NCBI GenBank assembly: GCA_029260855.1
Contig: JAJDCK010000001.1
Span: forward strand, 1,705 to 65,704
DNA from: Candidatus Saccharimonadota bacterium
Lineage (GTDB): Bacteria > Patescibacteriota > Saccharimonadia > Saccharimonadales > OFTM59
DNA: 64,000 nt
Reading direction: 5' to 3'
The notes beneath the pieces were generated by a model. It searched no databases. It had not been told where the DNA came from and worked only from the letters and a program-made list of their open reading frames with translations. The translations under genes and the position numbers were made by a program. This document shows positions 4,947 through 39,603 of the stretch, piece after piece; position 1 is the first letter of the stretch, and the number at the start of each line of letters is the position of its first letter.

Positions 4947-7340
4947 TTATGCGCTTGTTCGCTTAGCAAACCCGAAGCCTGCTTTGTTCTTTGAAATACT
5001 GGTAGACTTATTAACCTTAACCGTGCTTTGTTCTGCCGTGTGCCGCGGCTTCATATGCAGGTAATATGTGGTCTTTAGGCCTTTTTCCCACGCCTTGGTA
5101 TAGATATCGACCATATCGTCTATTTCGCGTGTTTCTAGGTACATGTTTCGTGACATGGATTGGTCAATCCACTTTTGGGCTCGTGCAGCTACCTCTATAA
5201 AAGCATATGGCGATAACTGGAACGAGGTCTTGTACACATCCCGGACTTCCTGAGGTATAGCCTCTATCTCCTGAATATCACCTTGAGCACGCAAAATATC
5301 TTCGCGAACTTCTTCCCATATACCTAACTCTTTTAGGTCATTCACAAGGTTAGCGTTCACTTCTAGGAACTTGCCATTTAGAGTGGCTCTGCTGAAAATC
5401 TGTGAAAACTGCGGATCAATTCCTGGTGTTGTGCCAGCAACATGGGCAATATTGGCCGTTGGTGCTATGGCCATCAGCGTTGCGTTGCGCATGCCCTTCT
5501 TGACTTTTTTGCGCAGCTTAGCCCAGTCCATTCTTTGAGTACGGTTTACTTCAATTTTGACTTTTCGATCCTTAGCAGTTGTTTCAAGCGTATCAAACGG
5601 GACCACACCTTGACTCCAGCGTGAACCTTTGTAGTTCGGGTAGCTTCCACGCTCTTCTGCTAGGCTAGCGCTTTCATCAATCGCATGGTAGCTGACAAAC
5701 TCCGCAATGCGATCGCTAAGCTCATAGGCCTGCTCGCTGTCGTACGGGAAACCAAGTCGCTCAGTTACGTCCGTAAAACCCATCACGCCCAGGCCAACGG
5801 CTCTGTTCATTTTGTTGGAATGCATGGCTTCGGGAATTGGGGTGGTTGTTATGTCAATCAGGTTATCTAGCTGGCGAATAGCAGAACGAACGCTAGATTC
5901 TAGGCGCTTCCAGTCAAAATCTTTCTGTTCATCTAGTAGGTGAGCCGACAAGTTAAGGCTAGCCAGGTTACACACCGCAATATTGTTCTCATCTTGCGGT
6001 AAGCATATCTCAGTACAAAGATTAGACATGTGAATAGTACCCGTGTTGTTGTTGAGGGCGCGGTTGTTGGTGGTGTCCTTCCAGGTCAGCCACGGATGCG
6101 AGGTAGTTTGTAGACTCATCAGTATTGATCTGAACTGCTCGCGCGCCTTAATTCTCTTGAATACACGCATCTTTCCGGATTCGGCTAGCTTGACATATTC
6201 GTTGTAACGCTTAGAAAAGGCAGAGCCGTAAAGCTCGTTTAGATCACTGACTTCAGCTGGGTCAAACAAATACCAGTCAGCGTCATTTTTCACTCGTTTC
6301 ATAAACTCGTCCGAAATCCATACGGCAGTATTGGCCGTTCTGGCGCGACGATAGGGGTCGCCAGAGTTTTGTTTAAGGTCAAGATACTGTGGGAAGTCGA
6401 GGTGCCAGTTTTCTAAGTAGAAACAAAGCGCGCCTGCCTTTTTCCCTTTGCGGCTGACAGCTCGCAAAATCGAGTCAACGGTATGCATGTAGGGTATAGG
6501 GCCAGTAGACACCGTATTTGTGCTGCGTACTGGCGAACCCTCCGCGCGAAGCTTGGTCATACTAAGGCCTATACCGCCAGTACCCTTACTCATCCACATG
6601 ACGTCACGGTTGGCTTTTGCGATTGATTCAATATCGTCCTGGACCTCCATCAAGAAACAGTTAGCTAGTTGCGGGAAGTGCGTACCAGCGTTAACGTTAG
6701 TTGAGCCGCCAGGGATATAGTCCAAGCGAGACATGTGCTCATAAAAGTTCAGTGCTGCTTCTGTTGGGTTCTTTTCGTTGAAGCTCAACCCCATCGCAAC
6801 ACGCATACGCGAATACTGAGGCACCTCAATCGTCTCGCCGTCTAGTCTACGCAAAGAGTAGCGATTCCGGCTAGTAATAACCCCAAGGTACTTCATAAGA
6901 TTGTCTCTTGAAGGGTCAATAGCAAGCGCAAGCTTTTTAAGGTCAAAAAGTTTGTCGTTCATGCGCTTGTCAAGTAGCCCCTCACGGACGCCATCCTTGA
7001 TATATTGAATAAATTTGGTCCGGTGAAGTTCTACCAGTTCTTCGTCAGTGTTGAAGTCGCCCAAAACTTGCTTGTAAATAGTTTTGAGCAGCAAGCGTGC
7101 CGCTATCGTGTCATAGTCAGGATCATCTTTGACGTTCTGTAGCGCAGTGTTGATCGCCGCTTGGTCCAGCTGCGTAGTAGTAATACCGTCAAACAATGTC
7201 AGCGACAGCTCAGTCGCAATCTGAACCACCTTAGAAATTTGGTCTGGGAGACCCCTTGACGCGCGCTCCAGCGCACGATTGATTCTGTCGGCGTTGTACG
7301 GCTCTCTCTTACCGTCGACGTGCTGGACAGTGATATCCAT
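4947..7340 (-). CDS. nrdA: ribonucleotide reductase large subunit R1 (class I)
   Basis: N-terminal ATP-cone-like segment (VDGKREPYNADRINRALERA) and active-site SNLCTEI. 797 aa, with no Cys in the last ~40 residues. Confidence 0.92.
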   Translation of the reverse strand: MDITVQHVDGKREPYNADRINRALERASRGLPDQISKVVQIATELSLTLFDGITTTQLDQAAINTALQNVKDDPDYDTIAARLLLKTIYKQVLGDFNTDEELVELHRTKFIQYIKDGVREGLLDKRMNDKLFDLKKLALAIDPSRDNLMKYLGVITSRNRYSLRRLDGETIEVPQYSRMRVAMGLSFNEKNPTEAALNFYEHMSRLDYIPGGSTNVNAGTHFPQLANCFLMEVQDDIESIAKANRDVMWMSKGTGGIGLSMTKLRAEGSPVRSTNTVSTGPIPYMHTVDSILRAVSRKGKKAGALCFYLENWHLDFPQYLDLKQNSGDPYRRARTANTAVWISDEFMKRVKNDADWYLFDPAEVSDLNELYGSAFSKRYNEYVKLAESGKMRVFKRIKAREQFRSILMSLQTTSHPWLTWKDTTNNRALNNNTGTIHMSNLCTEICLPQDENNIAVCNLASLNLSAHLLDEQKDFDWKRLESSVRSAIRQLDNLIDITTTPIPEAMHSNKMNRAVGLGVMGFTDVTERLGFPYDSEQAYELSDRIAEFVSYHAIDESASLAEERGSYPNYKGSRWSQGVVPFDTLETTAKDRKVKIEVNRTQRMDWAKLRKKVKKGMRNATLMAIAPTANIAHVAGTTPGIDPQFSQIFSRATLNGKFLEVNANLVNDLKELGIWEEVREDILRAQGDIQEIEAIPQEVRDVYKTSFQLSPYAFIEVAARAQKWIDQSMSRNMYLETREIDDMVDIYTKAWEKGLKTTYYLHMKPRHTAEQSTVKVNKSTSISKNKAGFGFAKRTSA

Positions 7341-10983: not shown

Positions 10984-11664
10984 TTAATTTTGTTCAACCG
11001 CACGGCTATTTTTGTTACGCCATTTTTCAATTTCGGCATGATGACCCTTCAATAAAACGTCCGGTACCTTCATGCCCCGAAAGTCTTCCGGGCGGGTATA
11101 TTGTGGAAATTCTAGAGTCTTACCATCACTAAAACTTTCTATCTCAGTGCTTTTAGCACCGCCGAGCACCCCCGGCAAAAGCCTCACAACCGCATCCGTC
11201 ACGATCATAGCGGGCAGCTCACCACCAGTTAATACATAATCGCCTATTGATATCTGCTCGTCTATAAAAGCTGTCACGCGCTCATCATAGCCCTCGTAGC
11301 GAGCACAGACCAGGATCAGATTATCGAGCTGCGCAAGCTCTTTAGCTTTAGCCTGATTAAACCGCTCCCCTCGCGGCGTCATTAGAACCACTTTTTGCTT
11401 TTTGCTTTTTGCTTTTTGCGATTCATTCCCGTCATACGCTTTAGCTGCTTCAATAGCTGCCACAAGCGGCTCAGGCTTAAGCAGCATACCGTCGCCCCCA
11501 CCGTAAGGAGTATCATCAACCGTCTTGCGCTTTCCTAGGCCAAAGTCACGCAGATTTATATACGAATATTCAACAATTCCCTTGTCTTTAGCCTTGAACA
11601 ACATGCTAGTCTCCAGCACGGGCGGGAACATCTCTGGGAATAAACTAATAATCTGTATTAACAT
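10984..11664 (-). CDS. trmD: tRNA (guanine37-N1)-methyltransferase
   Basis: TrmD pattern: DDTPYGGGDGMLL, RYEGYDERV, SIGDYVLTGGELPAM. Confidence 0.92.
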   Translation of the reverse strand: MLIQIISLFPEMFPPVLETSMLFKAKDKGIVEYSYINLRDFGLGKRKTVDDTPYGGGDGMLLKPEPLVAAIEAAKAYDGNESQKAKSKKQKVVLMTPRGERFNQAKAKELAQLDNLILVCARYEGYDERVTAFIDEQISIGDYVLTGGELPAMIVTDAVVRLLPGVLGGAKSTEIESFSDGKTLEFPQYTRPEDFRGMKVPDVLLKGHHAEIEKWRNKNSRAVEQN

Positions 11665-11898
11665 CTCTAGGTATCATCCCATAAAATACAAAAACCTGCA
11701 ATTAAGCAGGTTTTTGTATCACATAAAGCTCCCATCTTCGCCAAGGCTTCGATGGGTAAACCCATTTTTTCCTCGAACGACTATGGCTCGCAGAGCTTTT
11801 ATATTTTTGTATTTGTTTTTTAACGCTGACGTCGCAGCCGTCAATAACTCAGCTATTGTAGCTGATTATGTTTTACCAAACAAGCCGTTTTCCACATA

Positions 11899-12354
11899 TT
11901 AAATATCTAGGTCGTCAAGGTCGCTAAGTTCTTGGCGGGTTCTTCGCAAAGCGTCACTTTCTTTTTCTTCTGGTTCTTCAGCCGGCCCCTGACTTGATGA
12001 TATTTCGTCTGGAGAGGTGTATTCGTCATTATCATCGTTACTGGTCTGGGCAGGCACGGTAGCTGCGCTGGCGTCGTCAGAGCTGCGCGTTGGACGTTCG
12101 CCATTTGACGTATCGATAATTTTCAGGTTGTAGCGGGCGTCATTTTTGGTGCCAAGTGCACGCAGTAATGTGCGTAGGCTTTGAGCAGTTGCACCACGCT
12201 TGCCGATTACCCTGCCCAGGTCTTCTGGGTCTACGGTGAGTTCAAGCAAGACGCCTTTTTCATCAACCCGTCTGTCAACCTTGACCGCGTCTGGTTTACT
12301 GACTACTGATTTTACGATAAATTCTATAAACTGTTGGTCAATAGTCGCATTCAT
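11899..12354 (-). CDS. KH-domain RNA-binding protein (YlqC/UPF0109-like) with an acidic C-terminal tail
   Basis: VIGKRGATAQSLRTLL KH core. Located between rpsP and trmD. Confidence 0.75.
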   Translation of the reverse strand: MNATIDQQFIEFIVKSVVSKPDAVKVDRRVDEKGVLLELTVDPEDLGRVIGKRGATAQSLRTLLRALGTKNDARYNLKIIDTSNGERPTRSSDDASAATVPAQTSNDDNDEYTSPDEISSSQGPAEEPEEKESDALRRTRQELSDLDDLDI

Positions 12355-12443
12355 GTACTGTCTATCCCTCCTTTTTCAGTCACTTGATGTACTGCCATTA
12401 TAGCAAATAAGTTGCTTATGTTCAGTGGCAAAAGATAAATATA

Positions 12444-12950
12444 TTAGATAATTTTTTCGTCATTAGCCGGCTTTTCAGAGCTTGCTTCAACAGCAATTTC
12501 TGTAGCGACGGAGGTTTCTGCTGGGGATTCTGCTACTGCTTCCACGACGACTTCAGCTGAGGTATCTGTGGTTTCAACTACAGCTTCTTCAGTTAGCTCC
12601 TCTTGCGGAGTCTTGGCAGCTGGAGTAGCTTTCTCGGCCGGGCGGTTGCGGCGGAGTTTGTCAGTATTCTTGATAACACCTTTTTTCTTGGCAGCAACCT
12701 GGACCCAGTCAGGCAATTTAACCTTTTCAGACTTCAGGATAGTTACGACACGAGGTGATGGTTGAGCTCCATTCTCAAGGTAAAAAGTAGCTTTTTCTTT
12801 GTCTAAAACCGTTAGCTTAGAGTGAGGGTTATAATGACCTAGCTGAGCGACAACCTTTCCGCTGGCAGGCGAGCGGCGGGCATCCTGAACAATCACGCGG
12901 AACTCTGCGTGACCTTTACGACCTGTACGTTGCATACGAATAGCTAGCAT
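12444..12950 (-). CDS. rpsP: 30S ribosomal protein S16 with a long low-complexity C-terminal extension
   Basis: Start taken at MLAIRMQRTGRKGHAEFRVIV. Canonical S16 N-terminus. Confidence 0.9.
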   Translation of the reverse strand: MLAIRMQRTGRKGHAEFRVIVQDARRSPASGKVVAQLGHYNPHSKLTVLDKEKATFYLENGAQPSPRVVTILKSEKVKLPDWVQVAAKKKGVIKNTDKLRRNRPAEKATPAAKTPQEELTEEAVVETTDTSAEVVVEAVAESPAETSVATEIAVEASSEKPANDEKII

Positions 12951-29992: not shown

Positions 29993-30256
29993 TTATTTTC
30001 GCTTAGTTTTTGTGGAAAGTCTGTCTAATAATGATGATTGGAGCAGGTTCCAGACAATTGAATTTACAAAAAAAGCTGCAATAGCAATTAGCGCTATAAG
30101 TACTATGTTGTGGCCCAACTCACCATTGAATAGACTGATAATTCCTGCGAGCATTACGACTATCACAGTCAACGCCAGATAGGCATGCTGCAGCTTTTGC
30201 CGTTCACTCTTTTGCGCATTCCAACTATTTAGCGAATCTTTTAGAACCTCAAACAT
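29993..30256 (-). CDS. small two-TM membrane protein
   Basis: GGAGAT RBS 4 nt before the ATG and two clear TM helices. Preferred over the antisense 29988..30182 ORF. Confidence 0.55.
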   Translation of the reverse strand: MFEVLKDSLNSWNAQKSERQKLQHAYLALTVIVVMLAGIISLFNGELGHNIVLIALIAIAAFFVNSIVWNLLQSSLLDRLSTKTKRK

Positions 30257-30502
30257 CCATATCTCCTATAATTAGATATATTATACTACCATTATATTTT
30301 TATGTCAATTTTATATTATTCCTATGTAGTTAGTCAGTTAAAAAAGTTATATATTGAAAAAAGTGCCCTATACGCGTCTCTTTTGGTTTCAGTTTGGTGC
30401 GGAGCTACAGAATTTACTTAAACTTTTTGGAGCGCTGGTTGACGGTAGTCTATCAAGCGCACCGCGCATTCCTGTTTCGCTCAAAAGCAGGGAGCTTGTT
30501 AT

Positions 30503-31459
30503 CTATTGAGCCTTACGCAAGCCCTCACGCCCCAGGCTGAGCCAATAATCAGTCTCTTCTGTGTCATTACCGTTTATATACTTCTCTTGGTGTGCGCCCA
30601 TAAATTCCATAGCTACGCCAGCAAGTGCGTATGCAGGTAGATACTTGCGCTCCTGGTCGGTCAGTGGGCAAAACTCACCATACTCATCTGCTACCAGCTC
30701 GCATTTCCGCTCTAGTGTCTCTGTACCGTTATCGTGAAGTAAGTTGGCAACAATTACCGCCAGCTCCTGTATGCGCGGGTAGTGATTGGCAACTGAAAAA
30801 TCTAGGATATATATCTTGCCGTCTTCGCCTTTAATAACATTCGCTTTAGTGAAGTCACCGTGTACAAAACAGTGTGGCAGGTCGTCTGTAGGGATAGCAT
30901 CATAGCCTGCAATCGCTTGCTCAACTAATGGTAAGTCTTCTGGCGCAATATACTGCTCTACCTTTTCAAGCATCGCGTGAATGTTTGGAATAGCCCAGCT
31001 ATCAAATAAATAGGGTGGTTCATAATCAATACTGTTTACCATAGCTGCTTGTTCCAGTACGTCTTTACGCTCTTCGTCTGATGGGGAGCGGTCTAGCTCC
31101 AAGAAACTCTTACCTTCAACAAATCGCATTAAAACGAGCGTAACGCCACTATCGCTATATGTCGTTTCGCCAGTATCAGTTGTTAATAGTTCTGGGTGAT
31201 GTACCCCAGCCTGTACGACCTTTTCCATTGTGGTGGCATAGCGAGTAATGTCTTCTGGTGTTCGTGTCTTAGCAAACATTTTGGCGACAAACTTTGCTTG
31301 GTCGGTTTCTATAATGACATTGCAATCTTCATAACCGACTTCAACGATACTACTCGCACTCAACTGACCAACGCCATAAGTTTCACAGACACGCTCAATG
31401 ACTGGCGTAAGGTCGCCTGTGTAATTTAGCCGGTCCGCTGGTGTTTGAAGTTCAGACAT
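30503..31459 (-). CDS. aminoglycoside/choline-kinase-fold phosphotransferase (APH family)
   Basis: Brenner motif HGDFTKAN and ILDFS. Start taken at MSELQT (ATGTCTGA overlaps the upstream stop). Confidence 0.75.
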   Translation of the reverse strand: MSELQTPADRLNYTGDLTPVIERVCETYGVGQLSASSIVEVGYEDCNVIIETDQAKFVAKMFAKTRTPEDITRYATTMEKVVQAGVHHPELLTTDTGETTYSDSGVTLVLMRFVEGKSFLELDRSPSDEERKDVLEQAAMVNSIDYEPPYLFDSWAIPNIHAMLEKVEQYIAPEDLPLVEQAIAGYDAIPTDDLPHCFVHGDFTKANVIKGEDGKIYILDFSVANHYPRIQELAVIVANLLHDNGTETLERKCELVADEYGEFCPLTDQERKYLPAYALAGVAMEFMGAHQEKYINGNDTEETDYWLSLGREGLRKAQ

Positions 31460-32285
31460 CAGCCAATAATTCCAAGTCTTGCGCGGATAACTCAATTGCA
31501 GTTGCCGCAATATTTTCGTCAATGTGCTGCTTATTTATAGCTTTAGGGATAGGCAATGTACCCTGTGTAAGCAACCACGCTAAAGCGACCTGAGCTGCTG
31601 TAGCATTGTGAGCCTTTGCAATATCTTGTATGACTTCACTATCTAGCACTTCCTGCCTCTTAACAGGTTGATAGGCAACTATATGGATATTATTTTCTCG
31701 GCAGTAATCCCAAAACTCTTGATTAACTTCATCTTTATAAAGCACATTGTAGTTCATTTGATTTGCCACAATCGGATGCTTTGCAATTTTGCGTGTTTGC
31801 TCCATATCGGCAACCGTGAAGTTACTAACTCCAAAATCGCGGACTATTCCTTCGTCAATCAATTCGTCTATTTGCGGAATAGCTTCCTGCCAGTTCACCT
31901 CATCCCAAGGTGCGTGAATGTACAGCATATCTAGATAGTCAGTACCCAGCTTTTTGAGCATCTGTTCAACCGTTGCACGGACTAAGCCATCGCCAACGCT
32001 TGTTTTCCATAGCTTATCAGCAATATATAAATCTTCACGCTTTAAGCCAGCGATTGCTTGACCGACAACCTCATCGGTATGAAATGCCCCGTACAGCTCA
32101 GCACAATCAATATGGTTCTGACCTTTGGAAATTGAATAGCGTATAGCCTCAGTCTCGGCTGCTTCATTATCGTAATTAGGCTCAGCTCCTTTGTACTTAG
32201 CACCTGGGTCAGCAGTGAATGTGCCGCCAATGTTCCAAGTACCGATGCCGATTGGAAAAAGTGTTTTGCCTGATTTTGTTTTCAT
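31452..32285 (-). CDS. aldo/keto reductase
   Basis: AKR pattern (IGIGTW, DCAELYG, HAPW, GVSNF). Start is uncertain: M at 32285, 32294 or 32297. Confidence 0.8.
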   Translation of the reverse strand: MKTKSGKTLFPIGIGTWNIGGTFTADPGAKYKGAEPNYDNEAAETEAIRYSISKGQNHIDCAELYGAFHTDEVVGQAIAGLKREDLYIADKLWKTSVGDGLVRATVEQMLKKLGTDYLDMLYIHAPWDEVNWQEAIPQIDELIDEGIVRDFGVSNFTVADMEQTRKIAKHPIVANQMNYNVLYKDEVNQEFWDYCRENNIHIVAYQPVKRQEVLDSEVIQDIAKAHNATAAQVALAWLLTQGTLPIPKAINKQHIDENIAATAIELSAQDLELLADV

Positions 32286-32310
32286 GTATCTCATCATAAC
32301 AAAATATGCC

Positions 32311-34941
32311 TTAAGTTTTTGCTGCTTTAGCTCGCTGCTTAATATCGGCAACCCAGTCCTTTAGGATTTGTAAGTGGTCTTTCAGATTGTCTGGAGTAGG
32401 TGTCTCTGTGCTACCAGCTTCGGCAGCTGGGTCATGCATATACTTTGCGCAGGTATGCATATTATCTGCGATGAGCTGCTTATCGGCATCGTCAATGAAA
32501 ATATCGTTAATGTTTCCCGGTTTCACATCTCTGCGATAGCGGATTACAATCCCGTTCAATAAAACTTCCTCTATCGCTCTTTCCCAGGTTCTCCTTAAAT
32601 CCTTATAAAAACTTTCTGTCTCGGTCTTGTAGTCTTCCTCATTATTTTCAAACTTGGCTTTAATGGGGTTTACTCGCTTCTCAAGAAAGTCAATTCGCTG
32701 TCCAGTCTTCATAGTGTCAAAGGGTAGGCTTTCACGCACGACACCAGGGCTTGAAACCTTTTCAATTGACCTAGCTGTATACCGTCCGCCAAGGTCGTTC
32801 ATAGCTCTCTCTAGCTCACTTGCGAATAGAACATTATGTGTAAATACAATCACCTGCCGAGTAAGCGCCTCTTGTGCTATGCGTTTTGCTATTCGCTCAA
32901 CATTGTGATGGTCCAATGAAGTTACAGGGTCATCAAAAACAATCGCTGATGTTGATGGGGTTATTGATAATTCTGCAAAAAATCCAGCAAGCGCAACACC
33001 TCTTTGTTCGCCCTCACTCATAATCTTCTCAATGTTGTCGCCCTTAAGGTCACCTGACTTGCCCGAGAGAATAATGGCACTAGAGGGAACGCCTTTTGTA
33101 GTTCTTCCTTTTACTAACTTCGCAGTAATTTTACCTAGGAATATTGCGTCAAGCTCGTCATTAAAAGTTTTGGCAAGTTTATCAATGATTAAACGCTCAC
33201 TTATATCACCAATTTTAGTACTTACTGCAAAAGTTTTGCTTGAATTTATTGCGTCCTGTAATACCTTCTTATCCTGATGAATATTAATATTTTCAAGGAT
33301 TTGTTTTTCGTAAGTGCTTAATGCCTTTTTTGATTTTAGATTCTTCAGCTTATCTAGGTCGGTCTGTAGCTGTCGCCTGAATTCATCGTCATCAAGAGGG
33401 GTCTTTATCTCTTCCCCTAATGCATTTACACATTCACTAAACCTAGTTATTTCTGCCTCAAGTTTTTTCAAGTCAGCGTACTTATCTATCTCATTAGAGC
33501 CATTGAAGATAGCCAGGTAATCTTGGTGCGCGTCTCTCGCCGTCTTAATGCTAGCCGAAAGTTTGGCGATGTCCTTATAGTCATCTCCGCTAAAATTTAC
33601 CAGCAGATTATCGTATGTGTCATCTAGGAGGTTGGCTCTGATAAACCCATCTCTAAGGGATTTGAAGACTGTATCTGCATTAGTAGCCAAGGACTGGCTC
33701 TTGTCATTAACAAAGCTAACAAAGTCACTGAACTTATCTGTGCTAGCCGATGAGATTGGCTGCTGACAAAGTACACACTTTGCCTGCTCGCCCGTGTGCG
33801 GAAAGGTATGCTCAGGATACGCAGACTTAGACGAGAATTCTTGTGCTGCTTCCCATAGGTTTTTCCATAAATCATTGCCCGTCCCGGTAATAAAGTTTTC
33901 ATTTTCAAACTTCTTTTTGCCAGCTTCGTCTGCCAACTTGCGCTTACTAACTGCGTCATCACGGGCGGTTATTATCTTATCTACATTTTCTGGGTCAAGC
34001 GCCTCCTGTAGCGTGTTGAGTTGAGTAAGTAAACCATTAAGCCTGGTGTATAGCTTGGTCCTCTCATCTCTAATTTTTTGTGGAGACTTCGTCTGCCTTA
34101 AGACAGTATCTTTTTCTAAAGCTATGATTTCTTGCTGTTCATCTAAAGTAAGGACCTTTTGAGCCTTAAAATCGTTTAGTGCCGTTTTGCCTGACAAGCC
34201 GCCGATTAATTCATGTGCCTTTGTACCGCTAAACTCCACAAAACTGGTTTCAAGGTTGTTAAGTGTGTCCGTCTTTGCTTGCAGGTCATCTTTCAGCTTT
34301 TGCGCAATAGCTTCAATAGCAATAGAGAGGCTGTCTAGAATATCCATACCAGCGGGCATGAATACCAAATCGTTCTCAGAGATTAAATAGTTGTGTCCGC
34401 TTTTACTATCAAAAACATGGACTGATTTTAACTGGGGGTCAGCTTCGCTACTGTTATCTAGCTGAAAGCTATGACTGCTTCCGTCAACTTCATAAAGGAT
34501 ATTGGCAATGCACTCACGCTCATGCTCACTATGCACATTGCCGCGTAGTTGCTCGCTATGACGACAATTACAACTATTTTTAAGAATTCTAGTGTATCCA
34601 GATTTACCAGAGGCATTATCCCCGTAAATCATGTTCAGCCCCACCTTTTCTAGAGGGAGCGGTGAACCATCGGTAATTGCATTTATATTTTGCGTTGCTT
34701 TAACTTCTGAAATTCTAACCCCGCCAGCAGAAGTTGCTCCGGTGTACTCATACTCCTCTAGCGGACTGCCTACTTTTTCGGCATATGCTTTTGGGTCAGT
34801 AGCTGCTTCAATTGCTTGAGCTGCGTAGAACCTGTATCGTTTATCATCAAGTTCGCCGCCAGAAAGAAGTTCAGCAACCAAAACTTGCTGCCACACGGGC
34901 TGACTTAAAGCCCACTTAACTATCTCGTCAATAATCTCCAT
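32311..34941 (-). CDS. RloC/PrrC-like ABC-type ATPase with a coiled-coil/CxxC zinc-hook insert (AAA_13-type); candidate anticodon nuclease
   Basis: Walker A GDNASGKS (107-114). About 420 aa of heptad-rich sequence with CVLC (389-392) near its midpoint. Signature SEGEQ (642), Walker B AIVFDD (666-671) and THN (701-703). The C-terminal ~170 aa contains LRRTWERAIEE and CAKYMHD. Confidence 0.6.
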   Translation of the reverse strand: MEIIDEIVKWALSQPVWQQVLVAELLSGGELDDKRYRFYAAQAIEAATDPKAYAEKVGSPLEEYEYTGATSAGGVRISEVKATQNINAITDGSPLPLEKVGLNMIYGDNASGKSGYTRILKNSCNCRHSEQLRGNVHSEHERECIANILYEVDGSSHSFQLDNSSEADPQLKSVHVFDSKSGHNYLISENDLVFMPAGMDILDSLSIAIEAIAQKLKDDLQAKTDTLNNLETSFVEFSGTKAHELIGGLSGKTALNDFKAQKVLTLDEQQEIIALEKDTVLRQTKSPQKIRDERTKLYTRLNGLLTQLNTLQEALDPENVDKIITARDDAVSKRKLADEAGKKKFENENFITGTGNDLWKNLWEAAQEFSSKSAYPEHTFPHTGEQAKCVLCQQPISSASTDKFSDFVSFVNDKSQSLATNADTVFKSLRDGFIRANLLDDTYDNLLVNFSGDDYKDIAKLSASIKTARDAHQDYLAIFNGSNEIDKYADLKKLEAEITRFSECVNALGEEIKTPLDDDEFRRQLQTDLDKLKNLKSKKALSTYEKQILENINIHQDKKVLQDAINSSKTFAVSTKIGDISERLIIDKLAKTFNDELDAIFLGKITAKLVKGRTTKGVPSSAIILSGKSGDLKGDNIEKIMSEGEQRGVALAGFFAELSITPSTSAIVFDDPVTSLDHHNVERIAKRIAQEALTRQVIVFTHNVLFASELERAMNDLGGRYTARSIEKVSSPGVVRESLPFDTMKTGQRIDFLEKRVNPIKAKFENNEEDYKTETESFYKDLRRTWERAIEEVLLNGIVIRYRRDVKPGNINDIFIDDADKQLIADNMHTCAKYMHDPAAEAGSTETPTPDNLKDHLQILKDWVADIKQRAKAAKT

Positions 34942-35093
34942 TAGAATAAGTTTACATCTGTAAACAGAGTTTGCATATCATTCGTTTTTATTACCAACTA
35001 TTTTAGTACTTTAATACTACTAAATGGGCGGGGGTGGTCTCCCTTCACCCCCGTTAATGACACTCCGCTGTATAAATGCCCAATTTTTGGGGG

Positions 35094-35372
35094 TAGAATG
35101 ACCAAGCGTTTTTTTGGGAGGAAAAAGGAAGTGCCGAATTTATGGGACTGACTTTGAAAAACACATTTTTTGATACAATAGGGTTACATTAACAATCAAC
35201 CGAATTCATTGTGTAGCCAACGCGGAGACTGGACCGCTTCAAAAAACTTCAGGGGCGTTTACAGCGAATTAACTGTGTAGGAATTACGAGGACGGCTCGG
35301 CATAAAACGGACTTACTAGCGGACTAACTGAGGTTTTTACTTCAAGGGGTCACACGGGATGTCCGTTTTTTT
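35094..35372 (+). ncRNA. candidate structured RNA or leader upstream of the recombinase gene
   Basis: TAGAAT -10-like element at 35094-35099. There are no ORFs longer than 26 codons on either strand. A 9-bp long-range stem AAAACGGAC/GTCCGTTTT (35304-35312 / 35361-35369) is followed by a T7 run. Confidence 0.3.
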
Positions 35373-35538
35373 ATTACAAAACAACCTAGAGCTGAGTATG
35401 GTGTCGTTGCTCAGCATCCTTTCAAGCTACGCTGAAACAGCAAACCAAGAGAAACCATATCTAGTAAAAGATGGCGTTAAAATCATTTTATAGACATACG
35501 CCTAAAGCTGCTTAAACTCTGTAAAGGATTATATACTT

Positions 35539-37239
35539 ATGGGTATGGCAGAACTTACCAGTACCCAGAAACTACTAGAGCTACTTCAAGCCGGTCTACC
35601 AAAAGCCCCAGGGGATGTGGATACAGGTACTATTAACTACGCCCTGTACGCTAGGAAATCTACTACCAGCGAAGATAGACAAGCCTCATCTATTGAAGAC
35701 CAGGTAACAGAGTGTATGGAAAAGGTTGTTGTACCAAACGACCTAAATATTGTTAAGGTCTATGAAGAGAGCTTCTCGGCAAAGATTGCTGATACGCGCG
35801 ATGAGTTTAAAGCGCTCATTAACGAGATAGAGAACGGTCATATTGATGGTCTCATTGCTTGGCATCCTGACCGTCTAGCGCGCAATATGAAAGAGGCGGG
35901 GGCGATTATTGACCTTGTAGACAGAGGACTAATTAAAGACCTCCGCTTTCCTACCTTCACCTTTGAAAACACTCCCGCCGGTAAAATGCTGCTCGGCATT
36001 ACATTTGTTATGGCTAAGCAGTATTCGGAACACCTTGCGGAAAGCGTTGACCGTGGGAACAAGCGAGCCATAGAGGACGGCGAGTTTATTGGTAAATTCA
36101 AGCACGGCTACACGGTTGATATTAACCGTACATTCCAGCCCGACCCTCGCAACTTCACGAAGGTTAAACATATGTTTACTATGGCTGTTGAGGGCAAGTC
36201 TCAAAAGCAAATCCGCGAGTGGATAAACGAGCAAGGCTACACGGTCCAAAAGCGCCCAGGTGGCGAGTATGAGCCTCACAAATGGGATAAGGACGATGTC
36301 TCAAAGCTCATCCGAGACCCGCACTACGCAGGTGTCCATAAATGGGGCAAGAACTTCACTGACCTTATGGAGGCTTACGATTTTGAGCCAATGATTTCAG
36401 TAGATGACTTCTTAAAGATAAACAAAGTTGATAGTCTCAACTCTGCAAAGATACTTGCCATTAGTAGACCACGAGGCGGCAACATTCGGGCAGACCTACT
36501 GAGGGGCAAGGTTTATTGTGGCGCGTGTAATAAGACACTCACCTCAATGTTGATTGATAAAAGGGATAAAGAAACCAAGGAAATTATTCAGTCACGCTAC
36601 TACTACAAATGCGAGACTGAGGGTTGCGCCGTAGAGGGTAGTTCTGCCCGTGCTGGATTAGTTGTCAGCGCCGCACAGCAGTTCTTTCAGGATTATTTAT
36701 TCATTACCAAGGGCAACTACGCCCACTTCGTTAAAGAGGCTGAAAAAGAGGCAAAGCGTAAGTCCGCAGAGTTTGACAGCATTATTGCTCGGTCAAAAAT
36801 CACTATCGCCAACAAGGAAAAATCATACGAGCGCACTAAAGATCTCATCCTCAAAAACCCTGACCTCAAAGAGCATTATGACCTAGATAAGTACAGCAAA
36901 GAGATTGAGAAAATAAGGAAGGACTTCGTTAAAGCTACGAAACAGCGCGACAACATCAAGAGCGCCATACCAACATTTGAAGAATACCTTAAACTTTTAG
37001 AAACCACCCCTGTTATCCTGGGCAAGATACGGGATATGAAGGTAATGGATGTGCTGCTAAGGATTTTCTTCTCTAATTTCACCATAATTCCAGGCGAAGA
37101 CGGCTTCCGTAAGGGGTCAACAGTGACCATAAAACTAAACGAACCCTGGGAAGGGTTCGTTGTTGCCAATGATTTCGTTCGTGGTGCGGGTAAAGGGACT
37201 CTAACCCTTGGCCTCGTCCTTGGCAAGGACGCGCTCTAA
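35539..37239 (+). CDS. large serine recombinase (integrase)
   Basis: N-terminal resolvase domain (YALYARKSTTSEDRQASSIEDQ), recombinase domain, Cys-rich zinc ribbon (CGACNK...YYYKCETEGC) and a coiled-coil C-terminus. The last 58 nt are antisense to tRNA-Gly. Confidence 0.88.
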   Translation: MGMAELTSTQKLLELLQAGLPKAPGDVDTGTINYALYARKSTTSEDRQASSIEDQVTECMEKVVVPNDLNIVKVYEESFSAKIADTRDEFKALINEIENGHIDGLIAWHPDRLARNMKEAGAIIDLVDRGLIKDLRFPTFTFENTPAGKMLLGITFVMAKQYSEHLAESVDRGNKRAIEDGEFIGKFKHGYTVDINRTFQPDPRNFTKVKHMFTMAVEGKSQKQIREWINEQGYTVQKRPGGEYEPHKWDKDDVSKLIRDPHYAGVHKWGKNFTDLMEAYDFEPMISVDDFLKINKVDSLNSAKILAISRPRGGNIRADLLRGKVYCGACNKTLTSMLIDKRDKETKEIIQSRYYYKCETEGCAVEGSSARAGLVVSAAQQFFQDYLFITKGNYAHFVKEAEKEAKRKSAEFDSIIARSKITIANKEKSYERTKDLILKNPDLKEHYDLDKYSKEIEKIRKDFVKATKQRDNIKSAIPTFEEYLKLLETTPVILGKIRDMKVMDVLLRIFFSNFTIIPGEDGFRKGSTVTIKLNEPWEGFVVANDFVRGAGKGTLTLGLVLGKDAL

Positions 37240-37258
37240 ACAACTGAGCTACACCCGC
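37182..37258 (-). tRNA. tRNA-Gly(GCC)
   Basis: Manual fold: acceptor GCGGGTG/TACCCGC, D-arm GCTC-AGTTGTTTA-GAGC, anticodon arm CGTCC-TTGCCAA-GGACG, T-arm AAGGG-TTAGAGT-CCCTT, encoded CCA. Confidence 0.85.
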
Positions 37259-39516: not shown

Positions 39517-39603
39517 TGGTGCGGATGAGAGGACTTGAACCTCCATGAGCCGAAGCCCACTAGCCCCTGAAGCTAGCGCGTCTACCAATTCCGCCACATC
39601 CGC
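39517..39603 (-). tRNA. tRNA-Leu(CAG)
   Basis: Acceptor GCGGATG/CATCCGC, anticodon arm CTAGC-TTCAGGG-GCTAG, 15-nt variable arm, encoded CCA. Confidence 0.9.

Follow-up and report, generated by a model that had tools for sequence, protein, structure and literature searches.

The closest analogues of the gene layout considered here, in which a recombinase gene is split by the integration of its own element, are, judged by arrangement, the IntP integrase of Mx8 and the archaeal SSV-type integrases, both of them tyrosine recombinases. The chromosomal attachment sites (attB) of Mx8 lie in tRNA-Asp genes; the targets of SSV-type integrases are also tRNA genes, and there the split falls in the body of the integrase gene and is inactivating. 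An account of Mx8 IntP/IntX places the attachment site of the element (attP) within the integrase coding sequence, with integration giving the gene a new 3′ end and the protein a different C-terminus, and reports the modified integrase as still active, with altered properties (PMC6070905, citing Tojo 1996 and Magrini 1999). The 'suicidal' integrases of the SSV type (SSV1, pTN3 and pT26-2) are described as carrying the site in their own gene, which is partitioned on integration and complete only in the circle, and the 2021 review that treats them states that self-disrupting recombinases are exclusive to archaea (PMC8371274). Here, we describe a stretch of 64,000 nucleotides of a Saccharibacteria genome (contig JAJDCK010000001.1, positions 1,705 to 65,704; hereafter the window), in which positions 30395-37189 are, on the evidence of their sequence, a 6.8-kb integrative island at the 3′ end of tRNA-Gly(GCC). 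The island was very probably inserted at the last few bases of this tRNA gene by its own large serine recombinase (LSR), the gene of which contains attP and was split by the integration.

The element family found in the window (below, the window family) shares with Mx8 an attP within the recombinase gene and a C-terminus that is swapped on integration. However, Mx8 is a 49-kb proteobacterial phage with a tyrosine recombinase, whereas the window family consists of islands of 2.6-8 kb that encode an LSR and no virion genes and that have 6-9 bp of identity to their target. With the SSV-type systems it has in common a recombination site in its own gene and a complete gene only in the circular form; in contrast, the enzyme here is a bacterial serine recombinase from which the last 35 of 585 residues are removed, leaving the catalytic and DNA-binding domains all intact. 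As the Mx8 and SSV-type systems are of the tyrosine family and the recombinase here is a serine enzyme, the window family is analogous to them and not a member. A tRNA-targeted system in which attP lies in a coding gene, and integration changes the C-terminus and switches behaviour, has reportedly been found in mycobacteriophages of clusters G, N and P (Broussard et al. 2013 are said to have described it). The gene split in that system is said to encode the repressor, the tail to be a degradation tag and the integrase to be a tyrosine recombinase, whereas in the window family the split gene is that of the recombinase itself. Within the library that could be searched, no description was found of the family, nor of an attP inside an LSR gene. 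The locus would extend the placement of a recombination site in its own recombinase gene, known earlier for the Mx8 tyrosine integrase, to LSRs, and from bacteria of the candidate phyla radiation (CPR). The features of the recombinase gene and of the two island ends are as follows.

37182-37258, minus strand: intact chromosomal tRNA-Gly(GCC) gene, which supplies the B′ arm of attB (ARAGORN and Rfam, 67.8 bits)
35539-37239, plus strand: open reading frame (ORF) of 566 aa with Resolvase, Recombinase and Zn_ribbon_recom domains (Pfam)
35539-37188, plus strand: LSR codons 1-550, the part kept at the tRNA-proximal island end (Pfam; PHROG 95 integrase, 1.8e-58)
37189-37239, plus strand: LSR tail created by integration (KGTLTLGLVLGKDAL, then stop), 17 aa read from antisense tRNA-Gly
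37182-37189, plus strand: predicted attR core TGGTGCGG
30395-30402, plus strand: predicted attL core TGGTGCGG, which repeats the attR core in direct orientation and is complementary to CCGCACCA at the 3′ end of the tRNA
30396-30509, plus strand: 3′ part of the LSR gene, separated from the rest of it (P′ arm of attP), comprising GA, ELQNLLKLFGALVDGSLSSAPRIPVSLKSRELVIY and a stop codon
30350-30394, minus strand: chromosomal B arm, which natively follows tRNA-Gly and is here displaced from it by 6.8 kb (aligns with loci L059 and L015)
No window coordinates: predicted attP junction of the window copy, ...GATTTCGTTCG-TGGTGCGG-AGCTACAGAATTT...
No window coordinates: predicted restored attB of the window copy, ...TTTGGTTTCAGTT-TGGTGCGG-GTAAAGGGACTC...

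An initial annotation, made from the letters of the window, had noted that the LSR ORF runs antisense into the minus-strand tRNA-Gly, its last 19 codons being the reverse complement of part of the tRNA. This overlap was verified at 58 nt, comprising one base of an Arg codon and 19 codons including the stop, and the last 58 nt of the ORF are the reverse complement of tRNA-Gly positions 20-77. Between 29000 and 38000, Rfam detected tRNAs and nothing else. The island had been proposed to extend from the tRNA to a 16-mer, tggtgcggagctacag, at 30395-30410, which adjoins an AT-rich stretch. Taken alone, the 8-mer TGGTGCGG is not above chance (three copies in the window against 1.36 expected, with 16 of 100 shuffles reaching three); the distal junction is significant because the 111 nt that follow the 8-mer encode, in the LSR frame, the native C-terminal tail of the family. 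When 35539-37189 is joined to 30403 onward, forming the virtual circle expected from excision between the two copies of TGGTGCGG, the result is a 585-aa ORF ending in ELQNLLKLFGALVDGSLSSAPRIPVSLKSRELVIY and a stop. The window tail matches that of a circular contig, L001, with a tblastn E-value of 2.9e-13 (1.6e-14 when searched reciprocally), and the LSRs with matching tails, of 582-583 aa, are encoded on small circular contigs of 4.7 and 5.2 kb. A detached recombinase 3′ end therefore begins at the distal 16-mer, which places attP within the 3′ coding region of the LSR gene, and the circular form is predicted to encode a protein of 582-585 aa with a conserved 35-aa tail (xxQNLLKLF...[VI]IY).

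The initial annotation had offered two alternatives, that the att site lies within the integrase gene or that integration created the C-terminus; both proved true, since attP lies in the recombinase ORF and integration alters the protein by adding the 17-aa antisense tail, as defines a self-splitting recombinase. The locus also has the characters of a tRNA island, namely a direct repeat at both ends, one copy being in the tRNA 3′ end, and an LSR that abuts the tRNA. The G+C content, a property that the initial annotation had singled out, is about 0.40-0.45 in the island and about 0.47-0.50 in the flanks. The proposed boundaries were upheld by tail homology, by empty sites, two of which pair with an occupied locus, by a minimal element of 2.65 kb and by circular relatives, all considered below.

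The 120 closest of roughly 1600 homologues of the LSR, from Saccharibacteria and other CPR bacteria, are alike in sequence as far as ...FVxGA(G), after which they divide into classes. In 64 the protein ends in xGTLTxGLxLGK[DE]AL, which is antisense tRNA-Gly; 36 stop directly after GAG; four, of 582-586 aa, end in the native tail (xxQNLLKLF...IIY); and 16 have other endings. Members of the class that stops after GAG are also inserted at tRNA-Gly(GCC), where the host tRNA variant TGGTGCGGGTTAG gives an immediate stop, so that 100 of the 120 are integrated at tRNA-Gly. The replacement tail follows the sequence variant of the host tRNA and amounts to 0-17 residues or more. Conservation of the tRNA-encoded tail, which the initial annotation had proposed to assess by aligning homologues, was not borne out: it varies with the host tRNA, 64 of the 120 having an antisense-type tail and 36 none. 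As read from these endings, the replacement tail is clearly incidental and would have no function of its own.

Three of the four proteins with a native tail were traced to contigs, of 4.7-6.8 kb, that have circular signatures (related loci and contigs are denoted by L and a number). The ends of L002 overlap by 30 nt (k-1), and those of L008 and L009, which come from two sequencing runs or samples, also overlap by 30 nt each; these two are exact rotations of one 4727-bp circle, offset by 2170 with 0 mismatches. The attP junction is internal to every traced circular contig, and no tRNA is found in any of them. Metagenome contigs were also scanned for the attP signature, which gave three matches: L094 and L095 are tandem-array junctions at tRNA-Gly and L093 is a contig-edge fragment, so that no free circle is among the three, and the same scan of viral contigs gave 0 matches. 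The empty attB predicted for the window strain was likewise sought in metagenome contigs, with 0 matches.

Other integrated copies also have the tail segment at their far end (L003, L090, L061 and L092). In L003 the tail is 7.8 kb from the LSR, across genes for a KAP NTPase, a protein with a faint QueC-like match and TatD; in L090 and L092 it is at the far end of islands with other cargo; and L061 is a minimal element of 2.65 kb that consists of tail, leader, micro-ORF and LSR only. Relatives that lack the island, to which the initial annotation had looked to define the attachment sites, were found among 80 loci fetched from species-representative genomes and anchored on the neighbouring SPFH gene; these loci also place the source of the window in Saccharibacteria. 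Of the 53 tRNA-Gly(GCC) loci recovered, most have a terminator hairpin directly after the tRNA and five carry an LSR 3′ end or remnant. The occupied L061 and the empty L049 and L067 align base for base from CCCGCACCA onward. In L059, the tRNA-Gly is followed directly by the left flank of the window: its empty attB (…CCGCACCA followed by CGCTGAAACCATTAGAGACGC) is homologous to the sequence left of 30395, the reverse complement of which is AACTGAAACCAAAAGAGACGCG. The window B arm also aligns with an attL-like site in L015, a closer relative by its adjacent 87-aa gene (87% identity), in which a 1.36-kb remnant without an LSR (11337-12698) lies between the tRNA and this site.

At the attachment sites themselves, attP reads …GAACCCTGGAAAGGGTTC-N10-ATGATTTCGTTCG, then TGGTGCGG, then nnnnACAGAATnTACTTAAACTTTTT…. 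On the P′ side, TGGTGCAA is found in the attL of both L003 and L090 and in the attP of L002, and the attR of L003 reads TGGTGCGG; because these differ, the obligatory shared block is TGGTGC, and the comparison places the crossover within it. TGGTGC is the complement of the last 6 nt of the tRNA, GC-A-CCA, in which GC is the end of the acceptor stem and A the discriminator base, followed by CCA. The identity between attP and attB is 6-9 bp (TGGTGC up to CCCGCACCA), and since the element contributes at most these 6-9 identical bases, the tRNA is left unchanged. With GATTTCGT to its left and ACAGAATC to its right, the core is the centre of an imperfect dyad, as would be expected of a serine integrase site, and the P arm and the chromosomal B arm have CG..GAAAyCATT in common. 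The 16-mer at 30395, which the initial annotation had read as a possible distal junction that fuses a D-arm-like 8-mer to the tRNA acceptor end, is the true distal junction; its resemblance to the D-arm is coincidental, and the fusion was ruled out, as other elements have atctacag, tcgaacag, ctgaacag or gattacag at the 8-mer position. The third copy of TGGTGCGG in the window, at 39517-39524, is the 3′ end of tRNA-Leu(CAG), which has the same 8-mer (CCGCACCA) as tRNA-Gly yet is unoccupied, so the core alone does not define the target.

The recombinase is, by its domain content, an LSR. It has a Resolvase catalytic domain (PF00239, 2.1e-21, residues 35-181), a Recombinase domain (PF07508, 1.8e-13) and a zinc ribbon (PF13408) that scores 20.7 bits, under its cut-off of 25.3. 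In an alignment of 73 homologues the catalytic motif Y35/R37/S39/Q46 and the four zinc-ribbon cysteines C325, C328, C356 and C361 are invariant, and an AlphaFold model of a homologue has long predicted helices at 389-437 and 447-473, possibly the coiled coil. A sequence search of the PDB gave a catalytic domain (2.4e-7) as the sole solved relative, the protein being remote from all solved LSRs, and an exact look-up of the window LSR returned no record. The enzyme resembles those of phiC31, Bxb1, A118 and SPbeta in the succession of a catalytic domain (YxRxSxxxQ), a recombinase domain, a four-cysteine zinc ribbon and long predicted helices, and in short att sites with a tiny shared core and half-sites of imperfect dyad symmetry; it differs from them in that sequence similarity is very distant. 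In these textbook LSR systems attP lies beside the int gene and not within it, and attB is usually located in protein-coding genes and not at a tRNA 3′ end.

The detached tail has been kept with some precision. In ten of ten DNA examples it is exactly 37 codons long, with QNLLKL and the terminal IY invariant and position 35 occupied by V or I, and in the same sequences there are up to four synonymous variants at one position and all three stop codons are used. The att sites of serine integrases are given in an abstract as typically 40-50 bp. Because the motifs are invariant despite synonymous changes, and the terminal one lies about 100 nt from the crossover, beyond 40-50 bp, the constraint acts on the tail as a protein. 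The tail has no conserved start codon, and tail-containing ORFs in integrated copies begin in unrelated flanking DNA. A second protein search, with the C-terminal 83 aa, gave just 25 candidates, though it brought out ORFs on the attL side and LSR fragments with tails. An AlphaFold2 model of a full-length homologue has a mean predicted local distance difference test score (pLDDT) of 73; in the tail the score is below 50 and the sole element is a short helix (550-562).

Under the reading that the island was inserted by its own LSR, the sequence shows that the LSR gene is intact only in the circle and that integration at tRNA-Gly removes its last 35 codons. Codons 1-550 remain beside the tRNA and are read on into antisense tRNA, which adds 17 residues here and none in hosts with a tRNA variant that stops translation at once. 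The tail, of 35 codons, lies 6.8 kb away at the opposite end of the island, and the whole gene would be regained on excision. It is the full-length protein, which the circle alone can encode, that would be proficient in integration; the truncated one, encoded by the integrated copy alone, would be altered in activity, stability or directionality and may act with the product of the micro-ORF upstream of the gene (see below) as directionality factor. Gene topology would in this way form a state switch, as for Mx8 IntP/IntX. It is possible, though somewhat unlikely, that the split-gene layout is a built-in switch for directionality and copy control. If the tail is needed for attP x attB synapsis, or tags the protein for turnover, and if its loss permits or blocks attL x attR recombination, direction would be set by the DNA state that encodes the enzyme and not by a directionality factor alone.

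The island and the split gene could also be real and the tail swap functionless, with attP located in the last codons for compactness and both recombinase forms acting alike; we regard this as possible though somewhat unlikely. In its favour, the replacement tail is plainly irrelevant, 36 of the 100 integrated homologues ending after GAG and 64 having varied, tRNA-dictated tails; the native tail is predicted at low confidence and is mostly disordered; and the loss amounts to just 6% of the protein, all recognised LSR domains lying upstream of it. However, the length of the tail is fixed (37 codons in all ten examples), and although synonymous changes have occurred, two motifs do not vary as protein, among them the final three residues at about 100 nt from the crossover. 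It is improbable that the circles are self-replicating, plasmid-like or satellite replicons that integrate occasionally, the chromosomal copies being dead ends that never excise. The many decayed copies without an LSR and the tandem arrays at tRNA-Gly (L015, L033, L034, L094 and L095) would agree with this, as would a PHROG search in which no recognised directionality factor was found, but no replication-related Pfam domain is present among the genes called on circular contigs, the minimal integrated element is just 2.65 kb, and integrated LSR ORFs and detached tail ORFs are intact across many genomes. The initial annotation had also envisaged a tRNA replacement segment, in which the island carries its own tRNA 3′ portion in the integrase gene and displaces the original, as islands of tRNA-targeting tyrosine integrases do. 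The 58-nt overlap of the LSR ORF with the tRNA speaks for such a segment; however, circular forms contain no tRNA and have just TGGTGC(GG) at the junction, 6-9 bp are all that attP and attB have in common, attL holds 8 nt of tRNA sequence and not 58, and the residues after GAG follow the tRNA variant of each host. The segment is contradicted by the tRNA-free circles and the 8-nt attL, and its probability is very small. Smaller still is the chance that no mobile element is present, the recombinase and its neighbours being conserved chromosomal genes and the 16-mer a chance match; the 8-mer alone is indeed not above chance, but tail homology, circular forms, empty sites and variable cargo contradict this.

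Some of the evidence weighs against the reading of an island that its own LSR inserted and that holds a gene split by integration. The circular forms belong to relatives of the element, excision of the window copy being predicted, and small circles could be autonomous replicons rather than excision products. The attP signature occurs in tandem arrays, so a full-length gene can also arise there. The class that stops after GAG makes up 36 of the 100 integrated copies, so the replacement tail itself is functionless; the pLDDT below 50 gives no structural hint of a role for the native tail; and any regulatory role of tail loss is one that we infer.

If the switch operates in this way, the LSR would be the first serine recombinase from a bacterium to match the archaeal 'suicidal' integrases. 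The family also offers a simple system in which to test whether the directionality of a serine integrase can depend on a C-terminal tail. Sequence alone is enough to read off the attP and attB of the element family. Few genetic tools are available for Saccharibacteria, and as its tRNA-Gly target is conserved and ubiquitous, the LSR is a practical candidate for an integration tool in these bacteria. The remaining features of the island are listed here.

35285-35375, plus strand: conserved non-coding leader with a covarying hairpin, upstream of the micro-ORF
35359-35493, plus strand: conserved 44-aa micro-ORF (ends ...KPYLVKDGVKIIL, then stop), about 45 bp upstream of the LSR
37138-37161, minus strand: 10-bp perfect hairpin with a T-rich tract, 21 nt past the 3′ end of the tRNA, in LSR codons KLNEPWEGFV (attP P-arm region)
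30503-31522, minus strand: APH-fold phosphotransferase, 339 aa, between attL and attR (Pfam APH, 4.3e-17; absent from other element copies)
31452-32351, minus strand: aldo-keto reductase, 299 aa (Pfam Aldo_ket_red, 9.4e-55)
32311-34941, minus strand: AAA_13/SMC-like ATPase, 876 aa (PADLOC PDC-S06, 2.1e-190, full length; Pfam AAA_13, 1.2e-13)

The 600-bp region upstream of the LSR, which had been described as free of ORFs, in fact contains the conserved 44-aa micro-ORF and the conserved structured leader. Micro-ORFs of this family, of about 41-52 aa and ending in KP[YF]L[VI]K[DN]G[VI]KIIL, are found upstream of every family LSR, including that of the 2.65-kb minimal element; the C-terminal motif was recognised upstream of the LSR in L001, L002, L003, L005, L009, L090 and L091 and, more weakly, in L061. 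The micro-ORF has no PHROG match and no database family match, and its product may have the role of directionality factor, regulator or leader peptide. The leader (TACGAGGACGGCTCGGCATAAAACGG...ACTGAGGTTTTTACTTCAAGG) is kept in the window, L001, L061 and L078 despite stops in all frames, and RNAalifold identified 13 pairs with compensatory changes, in an alignment of four sequences only. Its outer stem encloses the micro-ORF ATG. A hairpin at 35354-35366 was rejected as a terminator: the T-run consists of the micro-ORF codons VFLL and the loop holds the ATG. A second, unrelated leader type is found in L003, L005, L009 and L090.

The hairpin at 37138-37161 is the best terminator-like match between 29900 and 37900 (-17.2 kcal/mol); it is present in all elements, with z = -3.6 in L003, and may replace the displaced native terminator of tRNA-Gly, now 6.8 kb off.

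The initial annotation regarded the genes beside the recombinase as accessory cargo, and this held, other element copies carrying quite different genes; the kinase, reductase and ATPase genes are not syntenic core genes, as cargo differs between copies. The cargo proteins match nothing in PHROGs. The 876-aa ATPase, which also matches PrrC weakly in PADLOC, is a candidate defence protein of family PDC-S06. Relatives carry a KAP NTPase with QatB and TatD, GmrSD, or a bacterial HORMA protein with an AAA ATPase and a weak CARF match; L005, a relative of L003, has the same kind of cluster as L003, with QatB. The tail and P′ arm of L092 (7869-7983) are near identical to window 30395-30509 (33 of 35 residues), and its cargo consists of a bacterial HORMA protein, an AAA ATPase, a weak CARF/Card1 match and a 2-hydroxyacid dehydrogenase. 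As a near-identical tail is accompanied by quite different cargo, the cargo is modular and seems to be exchanged within one element lineage. Comparison of the copies shows an apparently invariant module of tail, structured leader, 44-aa micro-ORF and LSR, the rest being exchangeable cargo, largely of defence type. The element family, as delimited by these genomes, is widespread and very small (2.6-8 kb), with cargo exchanged among Saccharibacteria at a single hotspot.

Tycheposons, which reportedly form arrays at tRNA genes, are similar in being small, site-specific integrative elements with modular, exchangeable cargo, and tandem accretion at the tRNA is seen in the window family as well. In the preprint that describes them, 910 of 937 elements use tyrosine recombinases and many have replication genes (bioRxiv 10.1101/2020.12.28.424599). 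The window family, in contrast, uses an LSR, and the genes called on its circles include no replication-related Pfam domain.

The tRNA-Gly(GCC) site is an accretion hotspot, with tandem arrays (L094 and L095) and remnants that have a tail or P arm without an LSR (L015 and L033/L034). In L094, tails are located at 550, 2139 and 3788 and the tRNA-Gly at 6018. Foreign islands are nested between an LSR and tRNA-Gly, with L091 among these loci, and tail ORFs stay open even in remnants without an LSR. In several genomes, two conserved non-tRNA sequences recur after TGGTGCAC at the LSR 3′ end (L090 at 11635, L091 at 11644), the one in proteins P0059, P0123 and P0124 (GA followed by LDALCFEH...) and the other in P0078, P0084, P0086 and P0103 (G.PK[LI]FT[PR]NQ); this recurrence suggests that other element families insert at the same core. 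The neighbour in L090 carries a different serine recombinase, of 468 aa. Just outside the island, the AT-rich stretch contains a perfect sigma-70 consensus promoter on the minus strand (30280-30308; TTGACA-17-TATAAT, 12/12), which faces a chromosomal gene for an 87-aa membrane protein (29993-30256) for which L015 has a homologue (87% identity) in the corresponding position.

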